Positions 1,426 to 22,210 are shown, counted from the first letter of the stretch. The stretch is 49,906 bases of DNA from Candidatus Aenigmatarchaeota archaeon (GCA_016219485.1 JACRMX010000003.1:1-49906); one strand, 5' to 3'. Notes: a model not told the origin generated them from the letters alone. Numbers and translations are program-made.

Positions 1426-1459
1426 ATTTCTTCACACTAAGAAAATAATAGCAATGCTT

Positions 1460-2358: not shown

Positions 2359-2466
2359 AATTTTCTTCTGAAATTGTGCGGCAGTTCTGTTTAGTAAAAC
2401 AGAACTACGCGCCCAGGAATAAATGCGCTCAAACAAACTTAAAAGCATATTTTCATATTTATTTCT

Positions 2467-4829: not shown

Positions 4830-4857
4830 AAATCTATTATTTTTAAATGTGAACTAC

Positions 4858-4930: not shown

Positions 4931-4940
4931 TCAAAGCCTG

Positions 4941-5624: not shown

Positions 5625-5631
5625 ATACCGG

Positions 5632-5639
5632 TCACCTCC
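5632..5639 (-). promoter_or_regulatory. Shine-Dalgarno-like GGAGGTGA upstream of rnhB exon 1
   Basis: GGAGGTGA lies 7 nt upstream of TTG 5624. Similar GGAGG or GAGGTG elements precede ftsZ, gatB and several pilin genes in this window. Confidence 0.5.
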
Positions 5640-5756
5640 TTCCACAACGATTGCAGGCCATTTTTTATTTTCTTAAAAATAATGCCAGGAATCTCATCCT
5701 CTACCACATGATGCAAAAATAGACAGAACTATAGCTCCAAAGAATATAAAATAAAA

Positions 5757-6149: not shown

Positions 6150-6183
6150 GTAAATAAATATGCAACAGCTGCTTATAAAGGTT

Positions 6184-6822
6184 TCAGCGGATGCTTAGCA
6201 CAAACTTCCAGATATATGGAATCAGAAGCAATATCAGTAGCATTGACACGATAAGCAGCATCCCTCTTTTCCATCCTTCCCTTTTAAAGCCAAAAGCAAG
6301 GCCTATGAAAAGCCCGCCAAAATGCGCAGCATAGGATATGTTACCGGTTCCCTGGATAAACCCTATGGCATTATAAAGCGAATACATTACCCCAAGCAGC
6401 GCCAAAGGCACGGGTATGAAAAACGGGTAAAGGGAAAGGTCAAAGGGCCTGACTATCATGCCTAGCCCTACCAGCGCGAAAATGCCTGCACTTGCTCCTA
6501 TTGCAACTGTTTCAGAAGAATAAAAAAACAGCGATACGAAATCTCCAAAAAATGCGCCAGTGAAAAACAGCGCCAGCATCTTCAGCATGCCAAGCTCTGA
6601 TTCCACAGCAGCGCCAAAGAAGAACAGCACAAGTATATTTGACAGCAGATGCTCCAGCGAACCATGCAAAAATATGGAAGTCAGGAGTATCCACGGCCGT
6701 GTGGCAACAGCCTCACCGGAAAAACCATACTCCCCGAAGAACTGACTGTAGTCGGAAACGAAAAATACGGTGTAGACAAAGCCTGCTATGCACAAAAAAA
6801 TAAGAAAAAGCGTAAGCCTCAT
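6184..6822 (-). CDS. Rhomboid family intramembrane serine protease
   Basis: Polytopic membrane protein with HGSLEHLLSN, the catalytic GASAGIFALVG motif (GxSxG) and a downstream AHFGG histidine. The start was set to MRLTLF (6822). The ORF track extends to 7008. Confidence 0.75.
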   Translation of the reverse strand: MRLTLFLIFLCIAGFVYTVFFVSDYSQFFGEYGFSGEAVATRPWILLTSIFLHGSLEHLLSNILVLFFFGAAVESELGMLKMLALFFTGAFFGDFVSLFFYSSETVAIGASAGIFALVGLGMIVRPFDLSLYPFFIPVPLALLGVMYSLYNAIGFIQGTGNISYAAHFGGLFIGLAFGFKREGWKRGMLLIVSMLLILLLIPYIWKFVLSIR

Positions 6823-7272
6823 GCTGTTTCCTTTATCATAGGCTGGATAAAAAGATTTTATAGAAAAAACATATGGCGTTGCATCAGTACTCTGCATCTG
6901 CAAACATTGTTTTTGGATAAATTTGGCTATCCACACGAGAATAAATGTTCCCAATGGCACCAGTGAGCTCTTTTGAGCCAACTGCGCATAAATAACTATA
7001 CTATTCAAAATATATTAGATAAAATAGAAATGCTTTTTAAACGGTTACGTGATTAGTTTATATTCAAAAATTCAAAAATTTGCTTTTTTCCCTTGGACAA
7101 GGAAAATCGCATAGAACGCGAATGGACTTTGAACGAGAACTAGACAACTTCTATTTGATGGACTGGACTTTTGGACTAAAGGAGCATTGTTGCCTTATAT
7201 TTAAAGGCTTTTCGATGCTTAAAAGGATATTTTCGGAGATATATGTTTCCGGGAAACAAAGGAGGGGGTTAG

Positions 7273-8325
7273 ATGAATGAACTTAAATTTGACAACGTGA
7301 ACGGTGAGTTCGATGCCCACAAAGCGCGAATTCTCGTTCTAGGAGCAGGAGGAGCAGGTTGTAACACCGTTACGAGGCTCAGCGAAATAGGAATATGCGG
7401 CGCAAACATAATTGCCTTCAATACAGATGCAAAACACCTTTCAATCACCAAAGCTGAAAAGAAGATACTTATCGGAAAGGACCTGACAAGAGGCTTGGGA
7501 GCAGGTGGTTATCCTGAAATAGGCAAAAACGCTGCGTTGGAAAGCAAATCGGAGATCAAAGAAATTCTGAAGAATGTGGACCTGGTATTTATCACGTGCG
7601 GTCTTGGTGGCGGTACTGGTACAGGTGCTGCACCTGTGGTAGCAAAGGTTGCGAAGGAAGAGGGCGCAATAGTAATCGGAGCTGTTACACTGCCTTTCAA
7701 GCTTGAGGGAGCGAGAATCGTAAAAGCAGAAGAAGGTCTGGCACGATTAAGGGAAGTCAGCGACACGGTAATAGTAATAGAAAACCAGAAACTCTTGAAA
7801 TTCGCTGGTGAGATGCCGCTGAAAAAAGCCTTTGAAGTAGCAGACGACCTGATAGCCACGATGATAAAGGGCATAACAGAAACCATCAGTGAACCATCGC
7901 TTGTTAACCTTGACTATGCAGACGTAAGGGCTGTTATGAAATCAGGCGGTGTTGCAGCAATTGGCGTTGGCTACGCAGAATCACAGCACAGGGCACAGGA
8001 AGCAGTAGCAAAAGCTTTGAACCATCCATTGCTGGAAGTAGACTACGCAGGCGCAAAAGGAGCCCTTATCCAGGTTATAGGCGGAGAGGACATGAAGCTG
8101 GATGAGATTGGTGTAATAGGAGAAACTGTCTGCAAGGAACTTGACCCAGAATCCCAGGTAATATGGGGCGCTAGAGTGATACCTAAATTCGAAGGCATAC
8201 AGGTCATCACCATTGTAACAGGCGTAAAGAGCCCATACATACTCGGGCCTGTGCAGATGGAAGAGGTTGAAAGAGCTTCAGAAAGCAGGGTTTCCAGGGA
8301 ACTGGGAATCGAGATCATAAGATAG
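7273..8325 (+). CDS. ftsZ: Cell division GTPase FtsZ
   Basis: Has the tubulin signature GGGTGTGAAPVVA, VLGAGGAGCN, NTDAKHL, and the T7 region NLDYADV. GGAGGGGG lies 5 nt upstream of the ATG. Confidence 0.95.
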   Translation: MNELKFDNVNGEFDAHKARILVLGAGGAGCNTVTRLSEIGICGANIIAFNTDAKHLSITKAEKKILIGKDLTRGLGAGGYPEIGKNAALESKSEIKEILKNVDLVFITCGLGGGTGTGAAPVVAKVAKEEGAIVIGAVTLPFKLEGARIVKAEEGLARLREVSDTVIVIENQKLLKFAGEMPLKKAFEVADDLIATMIKGITETISEPSLVNLDYADVRAVMKSGGVAAIGVGYAESQHRAQEAVAKALNHPLLEVDYAGAKGALIQVIGGEDMKLDEIGVIGETVCKELDPESQVIWGARVIPKFEGIQVITIVTGVKSPYILGPVQMEEVERASESRVSRELGIEIIR

Positions 8326-8558
8326 AACAGTAAATCAGTGGGCTCTGCCCACTGTCGGTATGCAAGAAGCATACCGTTATGCTGACACGGGAAAATATGA
8401 CATCAATACGGTATCATATTGGTTAAAAAGGAAGCACCACACCTCCTTTTTTTAACCACACCCCAATCAAATCGGCAGCTGAAACCAGATGATGATCAGG
8501 GCAGATGCTCATCCTGCCCTCATTGATCTAATTTTGGCTGCCGCATTTTTCTTTTTTA

Positions 8559-8767
8559 CAGTAGATAAAGTATGGAATACTTTACAAGCAGAACCTTTGG
8601 TTCTGCTGTACATTAGAATACCTTTGGTATTCTATGTATCAGAAAGCTATGCTTTCTGAATACACCAAAAGCTTCGCTTTTGGTTGTATCTCTGCATCAA
8701 ATTCCTCAGAAAATTCATTCCAAAGGAATTTGCTTGTGATCAGAATTCCACCAGCCTGTTGACTGGC
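8559..8767. repeat. Hairpin-array repeat (at least 6 hairpins)
   Basis: Hairpins include gcagaacc-tttg-ggttctgc, agaatacc-tttg-ggtattct, cagaaagc-tat-gctttctg, caccaaaagc-ttc-gcttttggtt and ccagcc-tgtt-gactgg. It shares the cagtagataaagt leader and the cagaaagc and tgtt-loop modules with 15178-15530. Confidence 0.8.
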
Positions 8768-8803
8768 AATAATTATTAATAGATAATTTTTCCAGCAATA
8801 TTT

Positions 8804-9424
8804 TCAGACTTCAAAGGTAAGTATCTTCGTATCCAGGTCTTCTAACCTGAATTTATAATAAGTTGGGTCCGTCCTTCCATAATCTCTCTGAAACCTTACA
8901 AACTCTCCGGTCTCATCTCGTTCTAAAAAAACTTCTTCAATGGTAGGATCCCATGGGGCATATTTTATTCTCCCTTCTGGCCTGTATTCTATCCATTGAA
9001 CACCATCAAGTCTCCTGTATGTTATTCTCCATAAAAAATCGTAAACATCTTCGTCTATGGAATAGTGTGAGCCTGGATAGTCTGAAAAAGAATCTGAATC
9101 TGTGATGCCAAACATGGTAAATAATTTCCTTCTAAAATCTTTGAAATCGGATGTATCCCATACGTTCTTTTCTTGTCTATTATCACTCTGCATTGGACGA
9201 TATATTCTTAGCAAATAATATCGTGCTAACTGTCCAATAGGTTCATCGCTCTGTATCAGACAATATAATCCTACTAACTGTATAATATCTTCTGTAGGCA
9301 ATTCTCTACTTTCTCTTAATAAGCCTTTTTCATGGGAATAAGAAAAAGTTACACTCAAATCTGGATGCCCTTCACATCCATCGCTATGCCCATGCTCATA
9401 TAAATATAGAGTTATCCCTTTCAT
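8804..9424 (-). CDS. Hypothetical protein (206 aa)
   Basis: Long ORF with an acidic, aromatic-rich composition. No recognisable motif. Confidence 0.5.
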   Translation of the reverse strand: MKGITLYLYEHGHSDGCEGHPDLSVTFSYSHEKGLLRESRELPTEDIIQLVGLYCLIQSDEPIGQLARYYLLRIYRPMQSDNRQEKNVWDTSDFKDFRRKLFTMFGITDSDSFSDYPGSHYSIDEDVYDFLWRITYRRLDGVQWIEYRPEGRIKYAPWDPTIEEVFLERDETGEFVRFQRDYGRTDPTYYKFRLEDLDTKILTFEV

Positions 9425-9529
9425 AATAATTTAATTTTACAGGTAAAAATATAAAGCAGCTTCTATGATTGCTTTTTCTACTTAAGAAACTGCTACAAGC
9501 AAATCGCTTCTCTATGAATTCTTGAGCGA

Positions 9530-9672
9530 TTCATTAGAATTGCAAAGCAATTCATTAGAAATTCCGAAGGAATTTCTATGCACAGGAACGCAAAGCTTTC
9601 CTGATGCTATGCATGGAAAAAACTTTGTTTTTTCCAATGTGATGCATAAGATAAAGTTATAAACTTTATCTT
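9530..9672. repeat. Hairpin-array repeat, homologous to the left half of 37487-37728
   Basis: An about 110-nt segment starting cattagaattgcaaagcaattcattagaaattcc... is about 90 percent identical to 37505-37612. It holds five hairpins. Confidence 0.85.
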
Positions 9673-9699
9673 AATGAAATGATTTTGCGGATTTGATTT

Positions 9700-9858
9700 T
9701 CAGTGGTACATGAAATCCAGCACCATTTCTATTATCATCAGGATGCCTATGAGACTGAGAAGCAGTGGCGCTACTGTCTCGCCAGCAAAGCCCCTGGTTA
9801 TCAGGTATATGGCTACTACCAGCATAAGAATGCTCACAGCTATTTTTATTAGCACCAT
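9700..9858 (-). CDS. Small two-TM membrane protein (52 aa), not in the ORF track
   Basis: Manual translation gives MVLIKIAVSILMLVVAIYLITRGFAGETVAPLLLSLIGILMIIEMVLDFMYH. It sits just downstream of rpiB on the same strand and is more plausible than the plus-strand ORF 9710-9895. Confidence 0.4.
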   Translation of the reverse strand: MVLIKIAVSILMLVVAIYLITRGFAGETVAPLLLSLIGILMIIEMVLDFMYH

Positions 9859-9891
9859 AGTTATCGGGTTATTCTTATGTATTGCTGGTTT

Positions 9892-10323
9892 TTAAGCTTT
9901 AGCTAATTTTTTTATCCTGCTGATATGCCGCTCGTCGTTGCTGAATTCTGTACCAAGCCATGCGTAAACAATGGATTTTGCCTTGTCCTCTGTTAGTTCG
10001 CGGCTGCCAAGGCAGAGAACATTGGCATCATTGTGGCTGCGGCTCGTCACAGCTGTGCTTTCATTCCAGCAGAGCGCTGCGCGCGCGCCAAGCCTGTTGG
10101 CAGCCATTGCCATGCCGATGCCTGTACCACATATCAGTATAGCGCGCTCGCGCATGCCAGAAACAACGCTGGCAGCTATGTCCGGGTAGTCCACAGGCTT
10201 TGTACTGTCTGTCCCGTAATCGTTGCATTCATGACCCCATTCATTCAGCCAGAGCTTCACTTTTTCCTGGAGCTGATAACCTGCGTGGTCAGCGCCAAGT
10301 GCTATGTGCATAGTGCTATCCAC
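9892..10323 (-). CDS. rpiB: Ribose-5-phosphate isomerase B (RpiB/LacA/LacB family)
   Basis: Carries IALGADHAGY, ICGTGIGMAMAANR and SRSHNDANVL, which are family hallmarks. Confidence 0.85.
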   Translation of the reverse strand: MDSTMHIALGADHAGYQLQEKVKLWLNEWGHECNDYGTDSTKPVDYPDIAASVVSGMRERAILICGTGIGMAMAANRLGARAALCWNESTAVTSRSHNDANVLCLGSRELTEDKAKSIVYAWLGTEFSNDERHISRIKKLAKA

Positions 10324-10362
10324 CTGCTAAACTTTTAATAATTCATCTGCAATAATAACATA

Positions 10363-10635
10363 ATGCCTGTTTCAGTTGAAAAAGTTGCAAAGGCAGCGCG
10401 CCTCAATCTCACGCCTGACGAAAAAAAGCGCTTCCAGAAAGATATGGATAGCATCGTTGAAGCATTCTCGCTGCTGGACGAAGTCAAAGCTGACTGCGAG
10501 CCCAGCTTCCAACCTCTTCCTGTAAAGGGTACGCTGCGCAGCGACAGCGAAGAAAAAAGCCTTTCACAGAAGGACGCGCTGGCAAACACAAAGCACAAGG
10601 AGCGCGGATATTTCAAAGGCCCGAGGGCTGTTTAG
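10363..10635 (+). CDS. gatC: Asp/Glu-tRNA amidotransferase subunit C
   Basis: 90 aa with VEKVAKAARLNLTPDEKKRFQKDMDSIVEAF. It lies upstream of gatA and gatB. Confidence 0.8.
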   Translation: MPVSVEKVAKAARLNLTPDEKKRFQKDMDSIVEAFSLLDEVKADCEPSFQPLPVKGTLRSDSEEKSLSQKDALANTKHKERGYFKGPRAV

Positions 10636-10712
10636 ATGAGCTATCCTGGTTCGTGGCAGTCTTGAGCTATCCCGGTTAGTTGCAGTCTCCATGTTTACGC
10701 TACTAAGCGATA

Positions 10713-11570
10713 ATGATTAAACTTAAATGCTTTGCTGTTATAAAATTCTGCATGGCAATAGAAACGCCGACAATGGTAACTGTTTCAAGAATAGAGATTT
10801 ACGGAGTGGGAAGGCTGTTAGGATTAAAGAGATACGGCCCACACGTATTGGAAGGTCAGATAGGCACGGGCATAACAAATTTTGGTTCTAAGTTAAGTGA
10901 TACAATCAGTAGAGAAATAACTTTGGCTGACCAAAACACTCTTTTTCAGGCATATCTTATGCACAAATTCTGCAAAATGCAGCTTCCGGATAATATGAGG
11001 GGCGTTGTCTACAGGCTGTTTGATAAGCCGGGAAGCGGTAATAAGACAAGCGATGTTGTTGATTACAACAAAGGCGACACAGGCATGAAGAGGGCCAAGG
11101 ATACGGACAGGCGTGTCCTATGGGTCAGGGGCGTAGGCGAATTCTATCGAGACGAAGACGGCAGTGTAATATACAAAATGCGGGATGATGGGCATGAATT
11201 TTATAAAATACTTCCCTGCACGGGCTTTAATGAATGGACATGTGACGGTGGATGGGATCCGGAAACAGGGTTTGCATTCTCAACCAACCCAGACAGAAAA
11301 GCTGCTGTCAGGACATGGACAAGCAAAGGTTTCCCAGAAAATTTTGCAGAAGAGATGGTATCATACTCATATACAACAAATGAAGGTGAAGGTGTCGCTG
11401 GCGTTGGCCGCAGATATTTCGTCGGTGACGATGGTCGTTTCAGCGTCTTCGCGGGCTGGATTCCCGGGGAGTGGGATCACAACATCGGCTCGTTCCCGCG
11501 AGTAGGTCGCCGAGCGGAGCGAGGCACGCCGCAAGAACGTGATGCTACAACCGAAACGAACATGGGCTAA
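10713..11570 (+). CDS. Hypothetical protein inserted between gatC and gatA
   Basis: 285 aa ORF that is Gly/Asp/Trp-rich. No recognisable motif. Start uncertain. Confidence 0.45.
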   Translation: MIKLKCFAVIKFCMAIETPTMVTVSRIEIYGVGRLLGLKRYGPHVLEGQIGTGITNFGSKLSDTISREITLADQNTLFQAYLMHKFCKMQLPDNMRGVVYRLFDKPGSGNKTSDVVDYNKGDTGMKRAKDTDRRVLWVRGVGEFYRDEDGSVIYKMRDDGHEFYKILPCTGFNEWTCDGGWDPETGFAFSTNPDRKAAVRTWTSKGFPENFAEEMVSYSYTTNEGEGVAGVGRRYFVGDDGRFSVFAGWIPGEWDHNIGSFPRVGRRAERGTPQERDATTETNMG

Positions 11571-11618
11571 TTTCATTGGTTAATTTCTTTTATAAATATT
11601 ATCCGATAATTCTTAGTT

Positions 11619-12998
11619 ATGGGTTATAATATTTCTGTTTCAGAATTTCTCGAAAGCCGGGACATAGACTACGGGGATTTTGTTGCCTATGTCAATGCTG
11701 AAACCAGGCGGCTGAACAGCAAGCTTTTCTTTTTTCAGTCAGTATGCGAGCTTAAGACTGTAGAACAGAACGGAAAGCTTTCTGGCCTGCCTGTGTCTGT
11801 AAAGGACTGCATATGCACAAAAGGCATCCAGAGCAGTGCCGGCTCTGCCATACTGGAAGGCTACAAGCCACCTTTTGACGCCACTGTTGTTTCTGCCATA
11901 AAGAACGAAGGCAGCCAGATCCTTGGCAAAACCAACCAGGATGAATTTGGCTTTGGCACGTTTTCTGTAAACTCAGGCTATGGCGTACCTAAAAATCCTC
12001 TTGACCCTGAGCGCACATGCGGAGGAAGCAGCGGCGGCGCAGGCGGAATAACAGCTGCTGCAACGTTTCCGCACATAGCGCTTGCTGAGAGCACAGGCGG
12101 CTCAATATCATGCCCTGCTTCATTCTGCGGTGTTGTTGGGCTTACGCCGACTTATGGTCTCGTTTCGCGCTATGGCCTCATAGATTATGCCAACAGCTTA
12201 GACAAGATCGGGCCTATGGGAAAAACCGTGGACGATGTTGCTCTTATGCTTTCCATAATAGCAGGGTATGATGAAATGGACTCAACATCGCTGCCAGAGA
12301 AACAGAAGCATTACAGCACAGAAGGCGGAATAAAGGGCATGGTAATTGGCGTGCCCAAGGAATATTTTGAAAACGTGGATGAGCAGGTCAGCAAAAGCGT
12401 GTGGAACACAATAAAGAAAATGGAATCAGCTGGCGCATCGTATGTAGAAATATCACTGCCAAGCACAAAATACGCGCTTTCAGCTTATTATATAATTGCA
12501 ACAGCTGAAGCGTCCACAAATCTGGCCCGTTACTGCGGACTGAGATATGGCTTGCATAGCGAACTCAAGGAAGGGCAGAGCTTCAATGAATACTATGCAA
12601 AAACAAGGAGCGCAGGCTTTGGAGAAGAAGCAAAACGCAGAATTATACTTGGAACATTCGCAAGGATGTCAGGCTACCGTGACCAGTACTACATGAAAGC
12701 GCTGAAGGTTAGAACGCTGGTGATAAACGAATTCAAAAAAGCATTCAAAAAATGCGATCTTCTAGCTGCGCCAACCATGCCCATAACAGCGCCTAAATTT
12801 TCTGACATTCAAAAATTAACGCCACTGGAAAACTATCAGATGGATGTGCTCACTGTGCCGCCCAATCTGGCAGGCATTCCGATGCTTTCAGTGCCATGTA
12901 GTTCTGGAAAGCTGCCTGTCGGCATGCACCTCATGGCAGACTACCTGCAAGAAGAGCGCCTGTTGAAAGCTGGCAAAGTTGTGGAGGCTGTGAAATGA
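11619..12998 (+). CDS. gatA: Glu/Asp-tRNA amidotransferase subunit A (amidase signature family)
   Basis: Carries GLPVSVKDCICTKG, GGSSGGAGG and STGGSISCPASFCGVVGLTPTYG. Confidence 0.9.
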   Translation: MGYNISVSEFLESRDIDYGDFVAYVNAETRRLNSKLFFFQSVCELKTVEQNGKLSGLPVSVKDCICTKGIQSSAGSAILEGYKPPFDATVVSAIKNEGSQILGKTNQDEFGFGTFSVNSGYGVPKNPLDPERTCGGSSGGAGGITAAATFPHIALAESTGGSISCPASFCGVVGLTPTYGLVSRYGLIDYANSLDKIGPMGKTVDDVALMLSIIAGYDEMDSTSLPEKQKHYSTEGGIKGMVIGVPKEYFENVDEQVSKSVWNTIKKMESAGASYVEISLPSTKYALSAYYIIATAEASTNLARYCGLRYGLHSELKEGQSFNEYYAKTRSAGFGEEAKRRIILGTFARMSGYRDQYYMKALKVRTLVINEFKKAFKKCDLLAAPTMPITAPKFSDIQKLTPLENYQMDVLTVPPNLAGIPMLSVPCSSGKLPVGMHLMADYLQEERLLKAGKVVEAVK

Positions 12999-13513
12999 AA
13001 TTCAAAGAAGGAAAAATAATTGAAAAATTCAAAGCAGACGGAAAGGAAATAATTTTCAGGTTTCCGAAGAAATCTGATGCCAATAGGCTGAGGAAATACA
13101 TCAATGAACTCATAGATGAAAAGGCCTACATTGGCAAGCAGAAAAAAGTCACAAAAAAACAGGAAATTGAGTATGTTAAAAATAATCTGAAAGAAATTCG
13201 CAAGAAAGAGCGCATAGAAATCATAGCTGAACATGATGAAAAAATAATCGGAAATTCAAGCATATGGAAAAGCAGATTAGGCTACAGGGAAATGGGCATA
13301 GGAACAAAACTGCTTGAGCTTCTGATATCCATGGCAAAAAAAGAGCTCAAAGCCAGAATAGTCAGGCTGGATGTTTATGCAGACAATCCACGAGCAAAGC
13401 ATGTTTATGAGAATATAGGATTCAGGAAAATTGGTCGCATACCCAAAGGCTGCAAGCGCCAGAATGGAAGATACTACGATGATATAATCATGATTAATGA
13501 GGTGTGGAAATGA
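12995..13513 (+). CDS. GNAT-family N-acetyltransferase
   Basis: Motif A-like YREMGIGTKLLELL and NPRAKHVYENIGF. It overlaps the gatA stop and the gatB start. Confidence 0.65.
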   Translation: MKFKEGKIIEKFKADGKEIIFRFPKKSDANRLRKYINELIDEKAYIGKQKKVTKKQEIEYVKNNLKEIRKKERIEIIAEHDEKIIGNSSIWKSRLGYREMGIGTKLLELLISMAKKELKARIVRLDVYADNPRAKHVYENIGFRKIGRIPKGCKRQNGRYYDDIIMINEVWK

Positions 13514-14889
13514 TAAAAATAGGGCTTGAAATTCACTGCGCGCTGTCGTGCACAAAAACAAAGCTGTTCTGCGGGTGTCCGAACAGGGTCGTGGGCGAGC
13601 CAAACACAATAACATGCCCTGCATGTCTCGGCCTTCCAGGAAGCAAGCCCCGTGTGAACGCTGCAGCAATAGAAGCAGGGATAAAGATAGGGCTGGCGCT
13701 GAACTGTAAATTTCCCAAAGAAATTTTCTTTTCTCGAAAACAATACTTTTACAATGACCTGCCGAAGAACTTCCAGATAACGCAGTATGAAATACCGCTT
13801 GGAAAAGACGGGTTCTTTGAAACCCAGGAAAAGAGGATAGGAATAACAAGAATACACCTGGAAGAGGACCCGGGCAAAATCATTCACGCAGGAGGGGATA
13901 TGATAAAGGCTGACTACACGCTCATAGACTACAACCGCTCTGGTGTTCCGCTGTGCGAAATCGTTACAGAGCCTGACCTGCGCTCTGCACAGGAGGCGCG
14001 CATCTTTCTCGAAGAGCTTTCAAGAGTTTTGGAATATCTGGAAGTTTATGACTCTGGACGTGAAGGTGCATTGCGCGTGGACACAAATGTCTCTTCAGGA
14101 AGCGAAAGGGTTGAAGTCAAGAACATATCTTCTTTCAGGGATGTTGAAAAGGCGATTGAATATGAAATAAAGAGGCAGGCAAAAATAATAGAAAAAGGCA
14201 GCAAGGTTGTACGGGAAACGCGCGCATGGAATGGCAGCCAGACCGTCTCGCTGCGGGAAAAAGAGGCTGAAGAAGAGTATGGTTACATATTTGAGCCGGA
14301 CCTCACAAGAACAGCAATAGACGAGAAGGCTGTAAAATCGCTGAAAAAAACGCTTCCGGAAATGGCAGCTGACAAAGTAAAGCGGTACCAGAAAGAATTC
14401 AGGCTTTCCAGAGAAACCGCAGAGTCCATAACATCTGACCTGCATCTGGCGCGCATGTTCGAAACAGTGGTAAAGGATGTCGAACCGAAGCTTGCAGGAA
14501 GCTGGCTTGCTGTGCAGGTGCCAAAAACGCTAAACTACAATAACCTCAGAATAAAAGACAGCGGACTCAGACCAGAGCACCTGATTAAGTTATTAAAGCT
14601 TGTAGAACATGAAAAGATAACTGAGAAGACGGCAGAAGAAACCCTGCGAAAGATAGTGCTTAATCCACAGGACCCTGAAAATCTTGTAAAGGACATGGCA
14701 AAGATATTCGATAAAAAAGAACTCGAGGATGCTGTCAACGAAGTCCTGGCAAGCCATCCAAAGGCTATCATTGACTTCAAAAGCGGCAAAAAAGAGGCTT
14801 TAAACTTTTTAATGGGCCAGGTCATGAGAAAGACAAAAGGAAGAGGCGACTCTGCGACAATAAGGGATATTTTAAAAAAGAGGTTGTAA
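13504..14889 (+). CDS. gatB: Asp/Glu-tRNA amidotransferase subunit B
   Basis: Carries GLEIHC, CPACLGLPGSKP, HLEEDPGK, DYNRSGVPLCEIVTEPD and a C-terminal GatB/YqeY-like tail. Confidence 0.9.
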   Translation: MEMIKIGLEIHCALSCTKTKLFCGCPNRVVGEPNTITCPACLGLPGSKPRVNAAAIEAGIKIGLALNCKFPKEIFFSRKQYFYNDLPKNFQITQYEIPLGKDGFFETQEKRIGITRIHLEEDPGKIIHAGGDMIKADYTLIDYNRSGVPLCEIVTEPDLRSAQEARIFLEELSRVLEYLEVYDSGREGALRVDTNVSSGSERVEVKNISSFRDVEKAIEYEIKRQAKIIEKGSKVVRETRAWNGSQTVSLREKEAEEEYGYIFEPDLTRTAIDEKAVKSLKKTLPEMAADKVKRYQKEFRLSRETAESITSDLHLARMFETVVKDVEPKLAGSWLAVQVPKTLNYNNLRIKDSGLRPEHLIKLLKLVEHEKITEKTAEETLRKIVLNPQDPENLVKDMAKIFDKKELEDAVNEVLASHPKAIIDFKSGKKEALNFLMGQVMRKTKGRGDSATIRDILKKRL

Positions 14890-14891
14890 TA

Positions 14892-15167
14892 ATGTCAGCA
14901 CCATATAAAAGAGGATACCACCACACAAAATCCAAAGGTCAGGAATCCCATGTAAACTGCCAGTTCTGCGGCAGGACTGTTCCGAGATGGAAAACCTTTA
15001 CCTCGTACAGGGGATTCAGGCTTAATGACCCTGTTTTGAGAAAGCAGATAGACAGGCGGTTTGTTTCGTCCTTTGTGCGAAAGATGTACGTCTGCCCTGC
15101 CTGCGCAAGGCACCGCGGAATAGTGAAGGTTGGTAGAAGCAGAAAATCCAGAGCCACGAAATACTGA
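14892..15167 (+). CDS. rps26e: Ribosomal protein eS26
   Basis: HVNCQFCGRTVPRWK and YVCPACARHRGIVKV align with the eukaryotic/archaeal S26e zinc-ribbon pattern (HVxxxxCxxCxRxVP ... CxxCAxH). Confidence 0.7.
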   Translation: MSAPYKRGYHHTKSKGQESHVNCQFCGRTVPRWKTFTSYRGFRLNDPVLRKQIDRRFVSSFVRKMYVCPACARHRGIVKVGRSRKSRATKY

Positions 15168-15177
15168 TTTCTATTTC

Positions 15178-15530
15178 CAGTAGATAAAGTGGAATAGATG
15201 ACTTTGAAATCTTGCATTCCACTAGTCTATAGGACTAGTGGTGGAATGCGGGATGCAAGAACCACTGTAACATTGTAATGTTCGGAAAGCCTACTTTCCG
15301 ACATGTCAGAAAGCTTTGCTTTCTGAACATAGCAGCATTTTGATGAGTTCGGGATGCCACTGGTCTGTTGACCAGTGGTTCTTCACAAACCCCGTTTTTT
15401 TACAATACGCATGTAGTTTTTTTCTCTTTCCCCCTGAAATATAAGGGGAAAGAGAAAAAAACGTTCTGACAAAACATTAGGAAAGCGAGGATTTTCTGAT
15501 AAATTCCTTCAGAACTCGGAAGGAATTTGT
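15178..15530. repeat. Largest hairpin-array repeat (at least 9 hairpins, including the 16-bp TTTTTTCTCTTTCCCC/GGGGAAAGAGAAAAAA hairpin)
   Basis: Hairpins include cactagtc-tatag-gactagtg, aacatt-gt-aatgtt, cggaaag-ccta-ctttccg, cagaaagc-ttt-gctttctg, ccactggtc-tgtt-gaccagtgg, the big hairpin at 15418-15461, and aattccttc-agaactcg-gaaggaatt. Confidence 0.85.
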
Positions 15531-15578
15531 TTGTCCAGTAAAAGATAATTTATATAGAACCCGCGCTATTTATTTATT

Positions 15579-17288
15579 ATGCGCAGTGAACAAACGCCTA
15601 TGCTTAAAAAAATAAAATCCATGCGCGGCGTTCTTTACAGAAAAATCATGGAAAGAAGGAAGCCGCCTGAGCCTGCTGCAGAAAAATCAAGGGCAGGCAC
15701 AATGCTTGAAATTATGAGAAAAGGCCATGAAAGAAAGCAGGCTAAAAAGTCGAAAAAAACCAGGCGCGTTTACCCAAAATTCAGGGTAGAAGAACGCGAA
15801 AAGTTTATACTCTCCTCGTGGAACAAAAGCAGGCCAATGATATATCCGCTCATAAAGCCCTATGCGTACACCAATATACGATGGAACCCTGCGGAAAACG
15901 CGGTTGTTTATAATCTGATTGAGCCCAACCTGACGCCAAAAGAATCAGAAATGCTTCATAAAATCAAAGAAGGGCTTGTTCAGGTGATAAACGTAAGCCT
16001 TGACAAAGTAAAGAAATCCGGGGAAATGATGGGTTTTCTTGAGGAAAGCGTCCAGAGCCTGCTGGATGACTATGGCTATGAGCTCGGTGATGACCAGTAC
16101 CTGAAAATAATGTACTATGTATACAGGGATTATACAGGGCTGAACGAAATAGAGCCTCTGCTGAATGACCCGTACATAGAAGACATTTCATGCGATGGCG
16201 TAGAAACGCCTATATTTGTGGTGCATCAAAAACTCGGCTCGCTGAAAACAAACATAGTGTTTGAAGAGGACAAAAAGCTGAAGGAATTTGTCGTAAAGCT
16301 TGCTGAGCGTTGCGACCGCTACATAAGCTACGCTGAGCCGCTGCTTGATGGCTCTCTTCCGGACGGAACAAGAGTGCAGGCTTCGCTTGCAGGCGATGTC
16401 ACAACAAGAGGCCCTACTTTTTCAATAAGAAAATTCCCTGAAAAGCCTTTTACCCCTGTGGATATGCTCAAACTTGGAACTGCTTCTCCGGAGATGCTTG
16501 CATATCTCTGGTTTGTGGTTGAAAATGGGGCAAACATTCTTATAGCTGGCGGCACAGCAACAGGAAAAACAAGCTTCCTGAATGCGATATCACTGTTCAT
16601 CAACCCTGAATCCAAGATAGTAAGCATAGAAGACACGAGGGAGCTGAACCTGCCGCATGAAAACTGGGTGCCAGGCGTTTCAAGAATAGGATTTGTTGGT
16701 ACGAAGGTTGGTGAGGTAAGCATGTATGACCTGCTCAGGGAAAGCTTCAGGCAGAACCCGGATTACCTTATAGTAGGAGAAGTCAGGGGCAGGGAAGCTT
16801 CTGTAATGTTTCAGGGAATGGCATCAGGGCATATCAGCATATCAACCATGCACGCAGGCGATGTTGATGACGTCATTAAAAGGCTTATAACAAGGCCAAT
16901 AAGCCTGACACCTTCGCTCATAGAAGTTCTTGATATAGTAATCCTGATGGTCCACGCCAGGGAAAAGGGGAAATCAGCAAGAAGGGTCAAAAAAATAGTT
17001 GAAATTGAAAGCGTCTCTGAAAAGGGGGAGATACGCTCGCATGACATTTTCAACTGGAACCCTGTATCAGACAGCTTTGAATATTCGGGCGATTCAAAAG
17101 TCCTGAAAAAGATGTCTGAAGAAAAGGGTATTTCAATGGAGGGCATAATCAAAGTGATAGATGAAAGAAAGGATGTTCTCACATGGCTTGTCCAGCAGGA
17201 CCATAAAGACTGGAAAGAGGTTGTGAGGCATATGATAGAATACATCAATAAACCGGAAAAAATGATGGAAAAAATAAGAGGCTCCTGA
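15579..17288 (+). CDS. Type IV pilus/archaellum-type secretion ATPase (FlaI/PilB/VirB11 superfamily)
   Basis: Walker A is IAGGTATGKTSFLNA, Walker B region is PDYLIVGEVRG, and there is a His-box-like ISTMHAGD. The N-terminal domain has the YNLIEPNLTP pattern of FlaI-like proteins. Confidence 0.85.
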   Translation: MRSEQTPMLKKIKSMRGVLYRKIMERRKPPEPAAEKSRAGTMLEIMRKGHERKQAKKSKKTRRVYPKFRVEEREKFILSSWNKSRPMIYPLIKPYAYTNIRWNPAENAVVYNLIEPNLTPKESEMLHKIKEGLVQVINVSLDKVKKSGEMMGFLEESVQSLLDDYGYELGDDQYLKIMYYVYRDYTGLNEIEPLLNDPYIEDISCDGVETPIFVVHQKLGSLKTNIVFEEDKKLKEFVVKLAERCDRYISYAEPLLDGSLPDGTRVQASLAGDVTTRGPTFSIRKFPEKPFTPVDMLKLGTASPEMLAYLWFVVENGANILIAGGTATGKTSFLNAISLFINPESKIVSIEDTRELNLPHENWVPGVSRIGFVGTKVGEVSMYDLLRESFRQNPDYLIVGEVRGREASVMFQGMASGHISISTMHAGDVDDVIKRLITRPISLTPSLIEVLDIVILMVHAREKGKSARRVKKIVEIESVSEKGEIRSHDIFNWNPVSDSFEYSGDSKVLKKMSEEKGISMEGIIKVIDERKDVLTWLVQQDHKDWKEVVRHMIEYINKPEKMMEKIRGS

Positions 17289-18158
17289 ATGTACAAAAAA
17301 ATGGTAAGGCGGTTTTCCAGATTTGGGCTGAAATACTTTTCAAACTACATGAGCCCGCTCAAGGAGGAAATAAAGCAATCAGACATAGGCACTGTGTATG
17401 AAATTTATGTCGGAAAAATGTTTTTCTTTTCCTTGATCTCCTCTATCCTTATATTTATTTACGCTATTGCTATCTTCACGCTTATCGGCAGGTTTAGCCT
17501 GCTTATCTCTTCAGTCTCCGGCCTGCTGATGGCTGTGATATCATTTTTTGCGATACTGACTATTTTCCACTCATACCCGTTCCATCTCTCAGCCAACAAA
17601 AAATTGAGCATAGATTCCAACCTGCCTTTTGCGATGAATCACGCAGCAGCTATCGCAGCAAGCGGCGCACCGCCTTCTGTCTTATTCAGGCTGCTCATGG
17701 CAGTGCCTGAATACGGACAGATTTCAAAAGAGTCCGGCAAAATAATAAGAAACATAACAGTTTTTGGCATGGACACAGTCTCTGCGATAAGGGATGTTGC
17801 TGACAGGACGCCGTCAACCGAGTTTCGCCAGTACCTTTATGGAATAATTTCAACCATAGAAACCGGCGGCGACCTGAAATCTTATCTGGAGGGCACTGCA
17901 AAAGATGCGCTGTTCGCTTACGAGCTTAAGAGGGAGAGATTTTTGAATACATTAACCACATATGCTGATTTTTATACCAGTGTACTTATAGCAGCGCCTC
18001 TGTTTTTCGTATCCATTTTATCGATGATGTCACTCGTAGGAGGCCAGGTACTTGGCATGGACATAACAACTGCAATGAGACTGGGCATATATCTGGTAAT
18101 TCCACTGCTGAATATAGGGTTCATTTTATTCGTGCACTATACCCAACCTTCGGTGTAA
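17289..18158 (+). CDS. TadC/FlaJ-like polytopic membrane platform protein (T2SS-F domain)
   Basis: Immediately follows the ATPase. Has an N-terminal TM pair, a cytoplasmic helical domain and C-terminal TMs, which is the typical architecture. Confidence 0.65.
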   Translation: MYKKMVRRFSRFGLKYFSNYMSPLKEEIKQSDIGTVYEIYVGKMFFFSLISSILIFIYAIAIFTLIGRFSLLISSVSGLLMAVISFFAILTIFHSYPFHLSANKKLSIDSNLPFAMNHAAAIAASGAPPSVLFRLLMAVPEYGQISKESGKIIRNITVFGMDTVSAIRDVADRTPSTEFRQYLYGIISTIETGGDLKSYLEGTAKDALFAYELKRERFLNTLTTYADFYTSVLIAAPLFFVSILSMMSLVGGQVLGMDITTAMRLGIYLVIPLLNIGFILFVHYTQPSV

Positions 18159-18161
18159 AAA

Positions 18162-18950
18162 ATGAAAATGAGAACAATTACGCTTTTGAGCATTGCTGCG
18201 GGAAGCATTATATTTATAATAAACTACCGGTTTTTTCAGCACTACGAGCATATTTTCATGGCTTTAAACATAGTGGCAATACTGATAGCGCTGGTACTTC
18301 CGCTGGGAATGAAGTATGAGCAGTTCAGCAGGATTAAAAAGATTGAAACGCTTTTCCCTATTTTTCTGAGGGACATAACAGATAATATCAAAAGCGGCAT
18401 GACCCTGCCGCAGGCGATAAGGGCGTCAACATCAAACAACTATGGCGTGCTTACGAATCATGTCAAGGAGCTGAGCGCAAAGATAGAATGGGGCATATCA
18501 TTTGAAAATGCCCTGAACAATTTTGCAGAAAGGGTGGGAAGCAACGTTATAAAAAGGACTGTGCAGTCCATAATAGAAGCGCACGAGTCAGGCGGCACCA
18601 TTGACAGCGTACTTGAAGTTGTTGCTTCTTCTGTGCAGGAAATAGAAAAAATAAACAAAAAGAGGGCAACAAGAATCTATTCCCAGATGCTGAACGGCTA
18701 TTTCATATACTTCATATTTCTCGGTGTAATGTATGCCATGACACATTTTCTGCTGCCAGCGTTTCAGTTCGCGGGGTCGCAGGCAGGGATACAGGAAATA
18801 TTCAACGAAATGTTCAGAAACCTTGTCGTGATTCAGGGTATTTTCGCAGGCCTGGCAATAGGCAAAATGGCTGAAGGCACTATAACAGCAGGGTTCAAAC
18901 ACTCGTTCTTTCTTGTTGTAATGGGATATTCTGTGTTAACGCTGTTGTGA
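18162..18950 (+). CDS. Second TadB/TadC/FlaJ-like membrane platform protein
   Basis: Same architecture as the preceding gene and 3 nt downstream of it. The soluble domain has a GMTLPQAIRA motif similar to T2SS-F. Confidence 0.65.
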   Translation: MKMRTITLLSIAAGSIIFIINYRFFQHYEHIFMALNIVAILIALVLPLGMKYEQFSRIKKIETLFPIFLRDITDNIKSGMTLPQAIRASTSNNYGVLTNHVKELSAKIEWGISFENALNNFAERVGSNVIKRTVQSIIEAHESGGTIDSVLEVVASSVQEIEKINKKRATRIYSQMLNGYFIYFIFLGVMYAMTHFLLPAFQFAGSQAGIQEIFNEMFRNLVVIQGIFAGLAIGKMAEGTITAGFKHSFFLVVMGYSVLTLL

Positions 18951-19034
18951 CCTGAGCTTTAAATAGCGTGAGAAATAATAGTATATCATTGATAATCACT
19001 TAAGTGATTATCATATAAATGATTAAATGATTCT

Positions 19035-19640
19035 ATGGATCATGATGCATGTGAGGGTGTAATAGAAAAATGGCTCGTTGAAAAAGGCTATGCGTGCTTT
19101 AACAATGCATCGATAGGTGGAAAATTTCCTGATATTGTAGCCTTGAAGGATGGGAAACTGATAGCAGTAGAAGTTAAGAACAATGCTCTTGAGATTCCCG
19201 TTGCATTGGGGCAGTGCTTATTCTATCTGGTCGAGGCAAATGAAGCATACATAGCTATACCCTATCAAGAACACGCTCTTATTTCTGATGGTACATTGGA
19301 GGTGTTGAAATCAAACAGCATAGGATTACTGGGATGCAGCAAAAGTGATGTTAAAATAATTTTGAAGGGGGATTTTAAAAGAAAAAATAATTCTGCGTTT
19401 ATTGATTCGCTACGCAACCGAACGCAAAAAAACAGGACAAAAATAAAAAATAGCCAAGAATTTATGAAAAAAATTAAAAGGGCACTATTAAAACAACCAA
19501 TGACCGTGGAAGAAATAAGCAGATGCTTCAATATAAACAGAGCCACTGCTTCCAAGTACCTTGCTGTCATGGAAATGGGTGGATTAATCAAATGCAGGAT
19601 GATTGGAAATGCAAAGCTGTTTTCGGTGGTGAAGAAATGA
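19035..19640 (+). CDS. PD-(D/E)xK nuclease-fold domain fused to a C-terminal winged-HTH
   Basis: The N-terminal part has PDIVAL...IAVEVK (D...ExK). The C-terminal part has TVEEISRCFNINRATASKYLAVMEMGGLI, an ArsR/MarR-like wHTH. Confidence 0.55.
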   Translation: MDHDACEGVIEKWLVEKGYACFNNASIGGKFPDIVALKDGKLIAVEVKNNALEIPVALGQCLFYLVEANEAYIAIPYQEHALISDGTLEVLKSNSIGLLGCSKSDVKIILKGDFKRKNNSAFIDSLRNRTQKNRTKIKNSQEFMKKIKRALLKQPMTVEEISRCFNINRATASKYLAVMEMGGLIKCRMIGNAKLFSVVKK

Positions 19641-19647
19641 AAACTGA

Positions 19648-19881
19648 GAGTTTTGAAAAACCATCAGCTCGTGGACAACTGAATAGGTATGAGAAAAAGT
19701 TAGAAACTTTTTCTATGTTGGGCTATGCCCGACACATGGAAATCCTATGGATTTCCAATGTACATGGAAAAGGCTGTGCCTTTTCCAATGTTTTGTCAGA
19801 ACGTTTTTTTTCTGCTTTCCCCTCGATATTCAGGAAGAAAGAGAAAAAACCGATTTTAATAAAGAGTTTTTCAAAGTCCTC
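19648..19881. mobile_element. MITE-like member of the hairpin family with terminal inverted repeats
   Basis: The left end is GAGTTTTGAAAAACC. The reverse complement of the right end is GAGGACTTTGAAAAAC. It has the same architecture as 37487-37728 (TIR, variable hairpins, big TTTTTTCTGCTTTCCC hairpin, TIR). Confidence 0.7.
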
Positions 19882-22210
19882 AATCTTTATTATTATAATT
19901 TTAATGCTGGTGCTGCTAAGCGGGTGCATAGAGACAGGGCATCCGATAGTAGAAATAGACGTAAAGTATGGAAAACACAAAATATATGGCGAAAATAACA
20001 ACGTAGTTGCTACCTATGAAATTAAAAAGGGTAAAAACGGAGACGATGTAGAAATATACGCAGAGAATTATGGTCATGTCAAAATAAACGGGATGAAAGG
20101 AAATCCTAAAAAAATGCATGTACAAGCAGGGCTTGCTGATTTTAATACACCAATAATAGCAGTCAACGAATCTGTGACATTTGAAAAAGCCGAGATAACT
20201 CTGATGAAAACAGGGTTTGTAAACAAAATATTTTATTGTTCCGGATGGAATATGGAACAATTTAGTTGTTCAGAATGGGTAAAAACCAACCTAAGTCTTG
20301 TTGCCAATAGCACGCACATTGTTTTCACTGTAGACCATTTCACAGCCTATGCCGGCGGTGTTGGTTACGAGTCAAACCTGACTGTATGGGATGATAGCGA
20401 TGAAAAAGCTGTAGGCGAGAACCAGAATGTTTATTTCTATGCAAACTTCACTAATGCGACGTCTGGTAAACCGATAAATGGAACAGGTGTGAACTGTTCG
20501 ATTGCATTCGGTGAACAAAAAGAAATGCGATGGAATGCCACCTCTTTGTTGCACGAATACAACACGTCGTTCTCTGCCCCAGGAACATTTAGCTGGAATG
20601 TTACGTGCAATGGAACATCTTTGGGTTATGATTTTTTGAATACCACTGATACCGTCCTGATATTGGACACAACCAACCCTGTTGTAAATATACAGCTGCC
20701 GCTGAATGCAACTAATATGACAACTCAGGGCATAAATTTTACAGCAACAGATAACGTAGCTGTAGACAAATGCTGGTATTCACTGGGTGCTGGAAATACA
20801 AGCCTGTCAAATTGCGCAAATATTTCTTCTATAACAGGCGAGCAGCAGGGCTTCAACAGGCTGCGTGTCTATGCAAATGATACAACTGGTAACATAGGCA
20901 TGAACGAAATTAACTATACACTAGATTCCAAGGGCCCTGTAATAAAAGATTTGACTGAAATGCCAACAGATCCAGCAGAGTATTTAGCATCACAATTCTA
21001 CGAATTCAATGCAACAATAACAGATGCGCAGAGGGCAGTCAGCAGCGTGTGGATTGAATGGAATGGCACAAACTACACCAGCATCTATAACACCGGAAGC
21101 ATATACTCTTTCAACAGGTCTAATCTTCCCATTGCATCACATAGTTATAAATGGTATGCAAATGACAGCCTTGGAAATGTAAATGTAACTGCGTTACAAA
21201 CATATATAGTAAGGGATACTACGCCACCTTTTGTTGCCATACAGCTGCCGCAGAATAGATCATATACAAACATGACGATGAATTTCACAGCTGTTGACCA
21301 GGCTTTTGGAGTATGCTGGTATTCGCTGAACAGGGGCACAACAAACACCAGCCTGCCCAGCTGCAGCAATCTTTCATCAATCGGAACAGAAGGTTTCAAT
21401 GAGCTGTGGTTATGGGCAAATGATACGACAGGAAATGAAAACGTCGCTAAAATAAATTTCACAAAAGACCTCACTGGGCCATTTATATTGCTGGGAAATC
21501 CTGCTAACAACAGCTGGTCAGCCTCATCGTCAAATACATTCTACTATACACCATATGATAATAGTACCATAGCAAATTGTACGCTTGTTATTGATAGCGC
21601 ATATAACCAATCGAATGCAAGTGCAGTTTCAAAAGGCACTGCAAATACCATGGCAGCAGGGCTGGCAGACGGAACGCACCTATGGACAGTAAACTGTACA
21701 GATGAGCTTGGAAATCAGGGCACAAACACGACAGCAAAAACCATCAATATAGATACGATAACACCAGTCGTGCAGATAGTGTACCCGCAAAACGCCACTT
21801 ATACGACTACATCCTTGCATCTGAACTTCACCTTCACGGAGCAGAACAGAGACAGCTGCTGGTACAGCCTTAACAATGGTGCCAATACGACCATCACCGG
21901 ATGCGCCAATGGCACAGCAATAACAGCTATGCATGGGCATAACAACATAACGCTATGGATGAATGATTCTGCCGGCAACACAGGCTCTGGCAGCGTTTTT
22001 TTTGTGCAAAATAATGCTCCAGGCATAGTTAACCAGAATGCGACATCTGGCGCAACAGGCGTGATAAGTAATGCAACAAACCCGACCAATAACAATACAT
22101 TTGTGAGGTTTACAGCAGAATATTCAGACGCGGACAGCGATAATGCAACAGTTTACATATGCAAACAGGATGATGGCAACCGCTATGGGTGCGGCCAAAT
22201 GGAACAATAA
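19736..22210 (+). CDS. Giant surface adhesin-like glycoprotein, N-terminal part (reading frame broken at about 22195)
   Basis: Signal or lipobox-like segment KKEKKPILIKSFSKSSIFIIIILMLVLLSGC, followed by three approximately 90-aa Ig-like modules (DTTNPVV...CWYSL...ANDTTGN). N-x-S/T sequons are very dense. The start is uncertain (ATG at 19637, 19715, 19736 or 19904). The ORF-track start 19523 overlaps the upstream gene and is rejected. Confidence 0.7.
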   Translation: MEILWISNVHGKGCAFSNVLSERFFSAFPSIFRKKEKKPILIKSFSKSSIFIIIILMLVLLSGCIETGHPIVEIDVKYGKHKIYGENNNVVATYEIKKGKNGDDVEIYAENYGHVKINGMKGNPKKMHVQAGLADFNTPIIAVNESVTFEKAEITLMKTGFVNKIFYCSGWNMEQFSCSEWVKTNLSLVANSTHIVFTVDHFTAYAGGVGYESNLTVWDDSDEKAVGENQNVYFYANFTNATSGKPINGTGVNCSIAFGEQKEMRWNATSLLHEYNTSFSAPGTFSWNVTCNGTSLGYDFLNTTDTVLILDTTNPVVNIQLPLNATNMTTQGINFTATDNVAVDKCWYSLGAGNTSLSNCANISSITGEQQGFNRLRVYANDTTGNIGMNEINYTLDSKGPVIKDLTEMPTDPAEYLASQFYEFNATITDAQRAVSSVWIEWNGTNYTSIYNTGSIYSFNRSNLPIASHSYKWYANDSLGNVNVTALQTYIVRDTTPPFVAIQLPQNRSYTNMTMNFTAVDQAFGVCWYSLNRGTTNTSLPSCSNLSSIGTEGFNELWLWANDTTGNENVAKINFTKDLTGPFILLGNPANNSWSASSSNTFYYTPYDNSTIANCTLVIDSAYNQSNASAVSKGTANTMAAGLADGTHLWTVNCTDELGNQGTNTTAKTINIDTITPVVQIVYPQNATYTTTSLHLNFTFTEQNRDSCWYSLNNGANTTITGCANGTAITAMHGHNNITLWMNDSAGNTGSGSVFFVQNNAPGIVNQNATSGATGVISNATNPTNNNTFVRFTAEYSDADSDNATVYICKQDDGNRYGCGQMEQ

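Follow-up and report, generated by a model that had tools for sequence, protein, structure and literature searches.

Strings of short DNA hairpins as a probable dispersed, insertion-like repeat family in a Candidatus Aenigmatarchaeota archaeon

The DNA considered here is a 49,906-nt contig of Candidatus Aenigmatarchaeota archaeon (GCA_016219485.1, JACRMX010000003.1:1-49906), apparently a complete contig of a metagenome-assembled genome (MAG) and referred to below as the window, which contains nine arrays of short perfect or near-perfect hairpins, including the focal array C at 15178-15542. The available evidence is that these arrays very probably constitute a genuine family of dispersed repeats with the behaviour of insertions. 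We also lean, with appreciably less assurance, towards the view that the family is non-autonomous selfish DNA, i.e. a lineage-specific set of mosaic repeats that spread at the DNA level. The best named relatives of the window proteins are from Candidatus Aenigmatarchaeota, a DPANN lineage, and a scan of genome contigs for GatB returned distant taxa alone, at no more than 50% identity. The G+C content of the window is ~42%, and the intergenic share is 11.8% according to the map based on open reading frames (ORFs) from which the genes were taken.

The excess of hairpins in the window is striking. Perfect hairpins with a stem of at least 8 bp and a loop of 3-8 nt number 37, compared with 5.3 ± 1.7 in dinucleotide-preserving shuffles, and the disparity increases with the stringency of the scan, to 29 against 1.4 when the stem is required to reach 9 bp and to 19 against 0.23 when a 3-nt loop is required as well, so that the excess ranges from 7-fold for all hairpins to ~80-fold for the last class. 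Most of the 37 (29) are intergenic, and three more are inside the insertion at 19643-19882, termed element B below. A similar picture emerges on comparison with natural DNA; in 1.2 Mb of unrelated prokaryotic loci, the density of hairpins with stems of 9 bp or more is 0.71 per 10 kb, compared with 4.8 in the window, and that of the RGAA-footed type is 0.01, compared with 3.0, a difference of ~300-fold. When one mismatch is allowed, ~37 hairpins fall into nine arrays, which together cover 1,766 bp, or 3.5% of the window, the units ranging from 19 to 47 nt with most being of 19-25 nt. The single-stranded DNA fold of the focal region, 15178-15530, has a z-score of -9.5 relative to dinucleotide shuffles, and the RNA folds of the arrays are likewise far more stable than those of shuffles. 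Strings of perfect or near-perfect hairpins were found at all the loci named in the original prediction, the proposal that they occupy most long spacers being overstated, as 13 spacers reach 200 bp or more and 6 of them have family arrays.

Such a pattern might in principle reflect palindromes that arose by chance in AT-rich DNA, or an artefact of assembly, given that the window derives from a MAG contig and that low-complexity GAAA/TTTC runs are common in DNA of this composition. The likelihood of this is, however, negligible in view of the excess over both the shuffles and the 1.2-Mb control, of BLAST E-values between loci as low as 1e-36, and of the occurrence of the modules in a sister genome that was assembled independently.

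The unit on which the arrays are built is a perfect hairpin of 21-25 nt with a stem of 8-10 bp. In its commonest form the 5' arm has YRGAAA at the foot of the stem and the 3' arm has TTTCYR, the pairs further in are variable, and there is a 3-nt loop, most frequently TTT. The flanks are unequal, with TGCA abutting one side of the hairpin and ATG, which reads CAT in the complementary strand, abutting the other. The units are therefore oriented, and they are found both ways round; neighbours are linked either by TGCA alone or by ATGYNATGCA. The grammar that had been likened to that of bacterial interspersed mosaic elements (BIMEs), i.e. clusters of short palindromes with recurring linkers, is real. 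When 22 units, drawn from three assemblies, are aligned, each of the eight stem pairs scored is seen to have changed on both sides, and 97.7% of cells are paired. This percentage is partly by construction, because the units were preselected as hairpins, but the same does not apply to the variety of pair types. In the foot, the two central A-T pairs hardly vary, being kept in 20-21 of the 22 units, and there are 24 distinct stems among 26 purine-first hairpins.

Conservation of the outer half-sites, YRGAAA/TTTCYR, is also what might be anticipated if the units were double-stranded palindromic sites (TGGAAA-N-TTTCCA) at which a protein dimer, of a DNA-binding or nucleoid type, is bound. This possibility is highly improbable, because the spacing of the half-sites varies, with a total length of 19-27 bp, and because the variable inner positions stay perfectly complementary, a property needed by a hairpin but not by a dimer that binds the duplex.

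More than 10 module types are present, free in order and orientation, in mosaics that span 65-365 bp. The recurring larger modules include AAATTCCT...AGGAATTTGYTTG (the hairpin of which can also be written AAATTCCT...AGGAATTT), TAAGATAAAGT...ACTTTATCTTA, CCACYRGTC hairpins, terminal inverted repeats (TIRs) of 14-17 bp, and a long polypyrimidine/polypurine hairpin of 17-19 bp, present in four copies. The latter had been described as having a conserved G.A mismatch, a feature that is in reality a one-base G bulge, present in three of the four copies with the layout TTTTTTTCT-G-CTTTCCC against GGGAAAG-AGAAAAAAA.

Pairwise comparison of the arrays reveals that modules recur in changed order and orientation, as had been proposed. 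Thus, 4866-4899 is a perfect reverse complement of 9607-9640 (34/34 nt), 9532-9640 is 89% identical to 37505-37613 over 109 nt in direct orientation, and 15418-15485 is 87% identical, over 71 aligned positions, to the reverse complement of 19780-19849, with the segment 15455-15485 matching the reverse complement of 19780-19810 at 94%; many shorter matches, of varying order and orientation, connect all nine arrays. Since the homology extends into linkers and loops, and occurs in both orientations, the arrays represent a dispersed modular family and not merely sequences with AT-rich palindromy in common. Within the direct 109-nt repeat, the stem TAGAAATTCC has the loop GAA at 9556 and TTC at 37529, a loop flip of the kind left behind when the arms of a DNA hairpin recombine with each other or the template is switched.

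Comparison with related Aenigmatarchaeota assemblies, the orthologous regions of which are labelled L081, L083, L194, L195, L196, L198 and L199, supports the proposal that the arrays are insertions, in that the orthologous sites are empty or differently filled. L081 and L196 belong to the sister genome, GCA_053536615.1, which has 80-83% protein identity to the window; L195 is from GCA_053537055.1. Array C, a 365-bp insertion with six hairpins (15219-15241, 15282-15301, 15306-15326, 15357-15378, 15416-15462 and 15501-15528), is located after the stop of an S26e-like gene and before the conserved promoter GATAATTTATATAG of a gene for a T2SSE/FlaI-like ATPase. Its hairpin at 15416-15462 is the long polypyrimidine/polypurine type, with 19/20 stem positions paired, and the h5-linker part of the array is inverted relative to the arrays termed A and B. 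The spacer between the S26e-like and ATPase genes is 411 bp in the window, compared with 93 bp in L081, 73 bp in L083, 25 bp in L194, 34 bp in L195 and 3 bp in L198, and the junctions of the insertion are such that window 15177/15543 corresponds to L081 9917/9927. The genes around this locus are gatCAB, the S26e-like gene, a FlaI/T2SSE-T2SSF pilus operon, in which the T2SSE ORF as called encodes 569 aa, with no identical sequence on record, and two very large surface-protein genes.

It may be that the arrays are instead host-selected RNA or transcription modules, e.g. terminators, exonuclease barriers or protein sites, which are kept perfect by selection and spread by recombination. The nearly perfect stems with compensatory changes are consistent with such roles, as are the stable RNA folds, the gene 3' end that adjoins seven or eight of the nine arrays, and the T5-T8 runs, an archaeal termination signal, that are present on both strands in eight of the nine (all but array F). 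By contrast, relatives with the same gene order have hairpin-free spacers of 3-93 bp, and arrays are found not only beside gene 3' ends, but also between divergent starts (array D) and in a coding start (element B). Nor are the arrays ordinary terminators, as the layout of a hairpin plus a T-tail occurs in 1 of the ~25 array hairpins scanned in 4500-20500, namely that at 19765-19787. Array orientation is unrelated to the direction of the flanking genes, which speaks against an RNA role confined to one strand; the loop flip is indicative of events in DNA, and the mismatches, which are few and without trend, do not have a G.U bias on the transcribed strand. Overall, host selection of this type is rather unlikely to explain the family.

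With respect to other classes, the whole window gave no Rfam match at the gathering threshold, with noise alone at E ≤ 10 on 600-2600. A CRISPR layout is absent from the arrays, in that the units differ, the spacing is 2-10 nt, there is no repeat-spacer periodicity, and no Rfam CRISPR repeat was matched. C/D-box and H/ACA small RNAs were considered, and consistent box motifs were not found on inspection.

Element B (19643-19882, + strand) is a 240-nt composite with the TIRs AGTTTTGAAAAACC ... GTTTTTCAAAGTC, located directly 3' of ATGAAA, the start of a large surface lipoprotein gene. Exactly 240 nt separate ATGAAA from ATCTTTATT in the window, compared with the uninterrupted ATGAAAGTC of the sister site, and the boundaries are such that window 19642/19884 corresponds to L081 14037/14039. 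The sister ortholog, which starts ATGAAAGTCTTTATT (MKVFIIV...LLSGC) and is uninterrupted, overlaps a regulator gene (ATGA). Element B is in frame and stop-free, its gene frame being the sole stop-free one of 36 when all frames are read in the six arrays that reach 175 nt, which suggests that it is read through, either from the original start or from in-frame ATGs of the CATGG flanks; the probable product is an N-terminal extension of 80 residues. The RNA fold of the element has a z-score of -6.2, with the TIRs forming the closing stem. A bulge-helix-bulge intron was considered for element B, and the motif is absent at its ends.

Element A (37484-37735, + strand) is a composite of ~245 bp with the same TIRs as element B, located between the topoisomerase start and the SerRS stop. 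It comprises the modules h1 (GAATTGC), h2 (TAGAAATTCC), h3 and h4 together with the long bulged hairpin, and ends in a TGGAAAAAC hairpin; the sister's site upstream of the topoisomerase gene has an array of different modules (L196 12975-13190). Elements A and B are alike in length and module order, and their shared TIRs of 14-17 bp (AGTTTTGAAAAACC / GACTTTGAAAAACC) are such that TIR pairing closes the whole element. Array D (40328-40606) is a 279-bp insertion in the divergent promoter spacer of the UbiA and class-I aminoacyl-tRNA synthetase (aaRS) genes, a spacer in which 279 bp of the window occupy the place of 15 bp in the sister, with window 40607/40327 corresponding to L196 8775/8791. Its edges are GGTATCC/GGATACC (7 bp), with TA on both sides, and it contains a long bulged hairpin, three foot-type hairpins, and one internal right TIR of the type present in A and B.

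The features of these composites could reflect classical TIR-bearing MITEs (miniature inverted-repeat transposable elements), i.e. the 240-280-bp composites (A, B and perhaps D) may be deletion derivatives of insertion sequences (ISs), moved via their TIRs by a DDE transposase, with the hairpins as passengers. The common TIRs, length and module order of A and B, the bounded edges of array D, and the clean 240-nt insertion of B are in accord with this proposal. However, both TIRs are present in two of the nine arrays alone, and arrays C, E, F, G and H are without TIRs yet have hairpin modules in common; a convincing target-site duplication was not seen, no IS with A/B-type ends, GAG(N)TTTGAAAAACC, was found in the window or the relatives' loci, and the TIR motif was not found in 38 kb of the sister. 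We thus consider this explanation improbable.

The other arrays vary in their setting and composition. Array E (9516-9690, + strand) has five hairpins and 109 nt in common with element A; together with an ORFan gene at 8804-9424 (- strand), it is inside a 953-bp insertion, 8738-9690, that is specific to the window. Array F (8557-8745), which is downstream of ftsZ and replaces unrelated sequence, consists of five tandem hairpins with different stems and a period of ~25 nt, followed by a AAATTCCT...AGGAATTTGYTTG module. Its left end, CAGTAGATAAAGT, and its right-hand module are common to array C, and there are four more copies of the right-hand module in the sister genome. Array G (4858-4930), between convergent genes, has two adjacent TGCA-joined hairpins nested in an outer GCCACTAC/GTGGTGGC stem. 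Array H (48408-48472) has two hairpins, an imperfect TGGAAAAACC and TAGAAAGTC, joined by ATGCA. Array Z (1-67), inside which the contig begins, has a TTGCAGAACC-TAAA-GGTTCTGCAA hairpin with a stem related to 8587-8607.

The modules are not confined to the window. The sister genome has the same modules at non-orthologous sites, with 80-93% identity, and has its own arrays elsewhere (L081 453-680 and L196 12975-13190). GCA_053537175.1 and GCA_053537055.1 have traces alone, a CCACCAGTC hairpin and a CAGAAAGC hairpin, and no family members were found in L194, L198 and L199, which have 61-63% protein identity to the window; the family fades or vanishes where the marker proteins, T2SSE or SerRS, are 60-74% identical to those of the window. 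A scan of metagenomes with a two-hairpin pattern found none, and pattern scans of viral contigs and BLAST searches against plasmids and phages likewise gave no family members. A metagenome scan with AATTCCTY...AGGAATTTGYTTG gave 110 matches, all of which were judged to be due to chance, as none was accompanied by other family modules or by RGAA-type hairpin clusters. From its distribution across the relatives and these collections, the family looks confined to a narrow clade.

Another intergenic hairpin family, with a CAGC/GCCG... stem, the loop GAATTTTTATNATAA and a conserved GAGCAAT tail, is present in a more distant relative, at L195 19030-19230 and 3720-3770. This family is distinct from that in the window, and different families may therefore have colonised different Aenigmatarchaeota lineages. 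Apparent hairpins in a further locus, L173, were rejected as an (AT)n run.

The position of the family members in the assemblies is also informative. The window begins inside array Z, and a sister family module, L196 505-549, is located just beyond the point equivalent to the window's other end (49885-49906), both of which are expected of a multi-copy repeat in an assembly. The assembly thus probably broke at these repeats, and their true abundance in MAGs is likely underestimated. The flanking gene regions of the sister are reproduced in Logan assemblies of run SRR16110284, in contigs that do not extend across the arrays.

With regard to mechanism, on the reading of the family as selfish DNA the modules would be copied or moved as single-stranded DNA hairpins, probably by an enzyme that is encoded elsewhere and acts in trans. 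By analogy with TnpA of IS200/IS605 and with the REP-associated tyrosine transposases (RAYTs) that act on REP/BIME (where REP is repetitive extragenic palindrome; PMC2817692), the enzyme may recognise and cleave via the hairpin foot and the flanking tetranucleotide TGCA. The closest model would be an HUH/Y1 transposase of the IS200/IS605-RAYT type, with a TIR-binding transposase being possible for elements A and B; that the mobilising enzyme is specifically of the HUH/Y1 type is less likely than not. The mosaic order could arise from insertion beside existing hairpins, combined with events between hairpins, either recombination or a switch of template. After insertion the arrays may act mainly as spacers uncoupling neighbouring transcription units, because the T5-T8 runs on both strands make it likely that they stop archaeal RNA polymerase in either direction.

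Several factors weigh against the assignment of the family as mobile selfish DNA. The counts rest on 50 kb of this genome. No transposase, HUH/Y1 protein (including IS200/IS605-like and RAYT-like proteins) or TnpB was found among the window ORFs, and precomputed Pfam tables for ~86 kb of relatives' loci list none of these either, the sequence searched for a mobilising enzyme thus being roughly 135 kb. Clean target-site duplications were not seen, the candidates being at most 2 nt, A(C/T), for element B and the TA flanks of array D, the site of which is rearranged relative to L196, with none being clear for array C. Every full-length copy differs from every other, and any recent transposition is thus hypothetical; moreover, nearly all the stems are perfect, a state in which decaying junk DNA would not persist, so something maintains them, whether host selection, a recognition requirement or arm-to-arm correction. 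It may also be that recombination or gene conversion alone spreads the modules.

The ORFan at 8804-9424(-), which encodes 206 aa and has hairpin arrays on both sides, was considered as a candidate mobilising enzyme and rejected as one of a known type, as it has no Pfam/NCBIfam match and no homolog among 5.8 billion proteins.

The architecture of the arrays is closest to those of BIMEs and pneumococcal BOX elements. As with the REP, BIME and REPIN systems, the repeats are extragenic short palindromes in mosaic arrays, with recurring linkers and both orientations (for BIMEs, see PMC2817692). As with REP/BIME, palindromy is kept by complementary changes, the arrays differ between related genomes, and there is a motif beside the hairpin, here TGCA/CATG; the spacing gives a period of ~25 nt, with both orientations present and without strict alternation. 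By contrast with the one to few REP classes, the stems in the window are heterogeneous and A+T-rich, with a constant foot and a variable interior. Membership of the REP family itself is not supported, failing on two defining features, in that there are at least 20 different stems and the flanks are TGCA/CATG with no GTAG/CGTC, which is the REP head (PMC3733652); nor was a RAYT seen in the sequence searched. A bolder proposal is that the arrays are the first archaeal counterpart of REP/BIME-RAYT, in which a single-copy domesticated HUH/Y1-like enzyme, or a new one, would maintain diversified mini-hairpins by recognising the foot and TGCA flank alone. We regard this as unlikely; if true, the hairpins would be raw material for genes, i.e. 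for the N-terminal extension, for promoters and terminators and, possibly, for intron-like inserts.

Pneumococcal BOX elements and MITEs (Correia, ERIC/RU and Nezha) are similar in being modular non-coding intergenic repeats of 100-300 bp, in which modules vary in number and order, with a stable predicted structure (PMC3184786), and in having TIRs, here in A and B, and no internal transposase, so that mobilisation is in trans (PMC3184786). BOX elements have three modules (A, B and C) in a fixed order, whereas in the arrays more than 10 near-perfect mini-hairpin types occur in free order and target duplications are not evident. Rickettsia palindromic elements (RPEs), and enterobacterial RU/ERIC sequences within ORFs, resemble element B as in-frame, stop-free palindromic inserts that may add a peptide (PMC2759123, PMC3184786); the difference is that here there is one case, in a signal-peptide region after the start codon, with translation being predicted only. 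The RHEs of sponge mitochondria, Volvox organelle palindromes and yeast mitochondrial GC clusters are likewise hairpin families in the intergenic DNA of compact genomes, with no element-encoded transposase (PMC2800124, PMC2670323, PMC4478555), but differ in host and sequence, and are usually single or double hairpins, compared with the ordered strings with conserved linkers in the window. REP/REPIN-type repeats have been reported as undetected in archaea (10.1101/2021.07.10.451892), and arrays of this type in DPANN archaea were not found described in our searches of the literature. We class the arrays as mosaic repeats of hairpins, or as MITE-like DNA, from a lineage of archaea for which no earlier description was found.

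Other features of the window were apparent during the work. Fragments of the hairpin family had been proposed to occur inside tRNA introns; a tRNA-like gene is present at 2166-2368(-), with readable acceptor, D and T arms and ~120 nt of intervening sequence, but its hairpins are pyrimidine-first, i.e. of opposite polarity, with the sole family match being 13 nt of polypyrimidine. ARAGORN in its default mode, and Rfam, found no tRNA in the window, and the intron option of ARAGORN finds 2166-2368(-). An RNA-like region at ~1150-1445(-) is closed by GCTCCCA...TGGGAGCA, is conserved at L196 1436-1682, and has two pyrimidine-first hairpins, each within GGCC...CCCCTGGG.

The aaRS gene beside array D, of the class-I Trp/Tyr type with a start at 40290, has a 30-nt insert at 40131-40160(-) with an in-frame TGA. 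The insert splits the conserved GFEPSG|LAHLPFG, which is uninterrupted in the L196 and L199 orthologs, and removal of the 30 nt restores G-L-A-H. A relaxed bulge-helix-bulge can be drawn, with 3-nt bulges, AU^A and AG^U, and a helix of 4 positions between them, a structure disfavoured by the nearest-neighbour model (-11.0 compared with -21.4 kcal/mol for the minimum free energy fold). The insert is a candidate splicing-endonuclease intron in a protein gene, unless the gene is a pseudogene or the sequence is in error. At 34117-37440(-), the topoisomerase IA gene encodes 1107 aa, with LAGLIDADG_3 and HTH domains within 34774-36193, compared with 711 aa for the sister ortholog, which is without this segment of roughly 1.2 kb; the segment has the look of an intein, or of an inserted homing endonuclease, and is found in just one of the two genomes.

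A perfect palindrome at 18990-19013, TGATAATCAC-TTAA-GTGATTATCA, is 100% conserved at L081 13385-13408 and is upstream of a gene with a weak Hjc-like N-terminal match and a wHTH domain; it is probably an operator, outside the hairpin family. At 43380-43453, in a spacer between convergent genes, the 37-nt unit TGAGATTGAGACAACAAAATGGCTCTGAATCATTTAA is perfectly duplicated in tandem.

Considered as selfish DNA, the family implies that compact, small DPANN genomes can be colonised by hairpin-based elements. In the window the family has expanded spacers from <100 bp to ~400 bp, parted formerly overlapping genes and entered a coding start. The conserved foot, YRGAAA, together with the TGCA flank, provides a concrete handle for finding the enzyme responsible, and the arrays are natural markers for strain typing and explain contig breaks in these MAGs. 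If element B is translated, it would represent a case of repeat-driven protein innovation in archaea.

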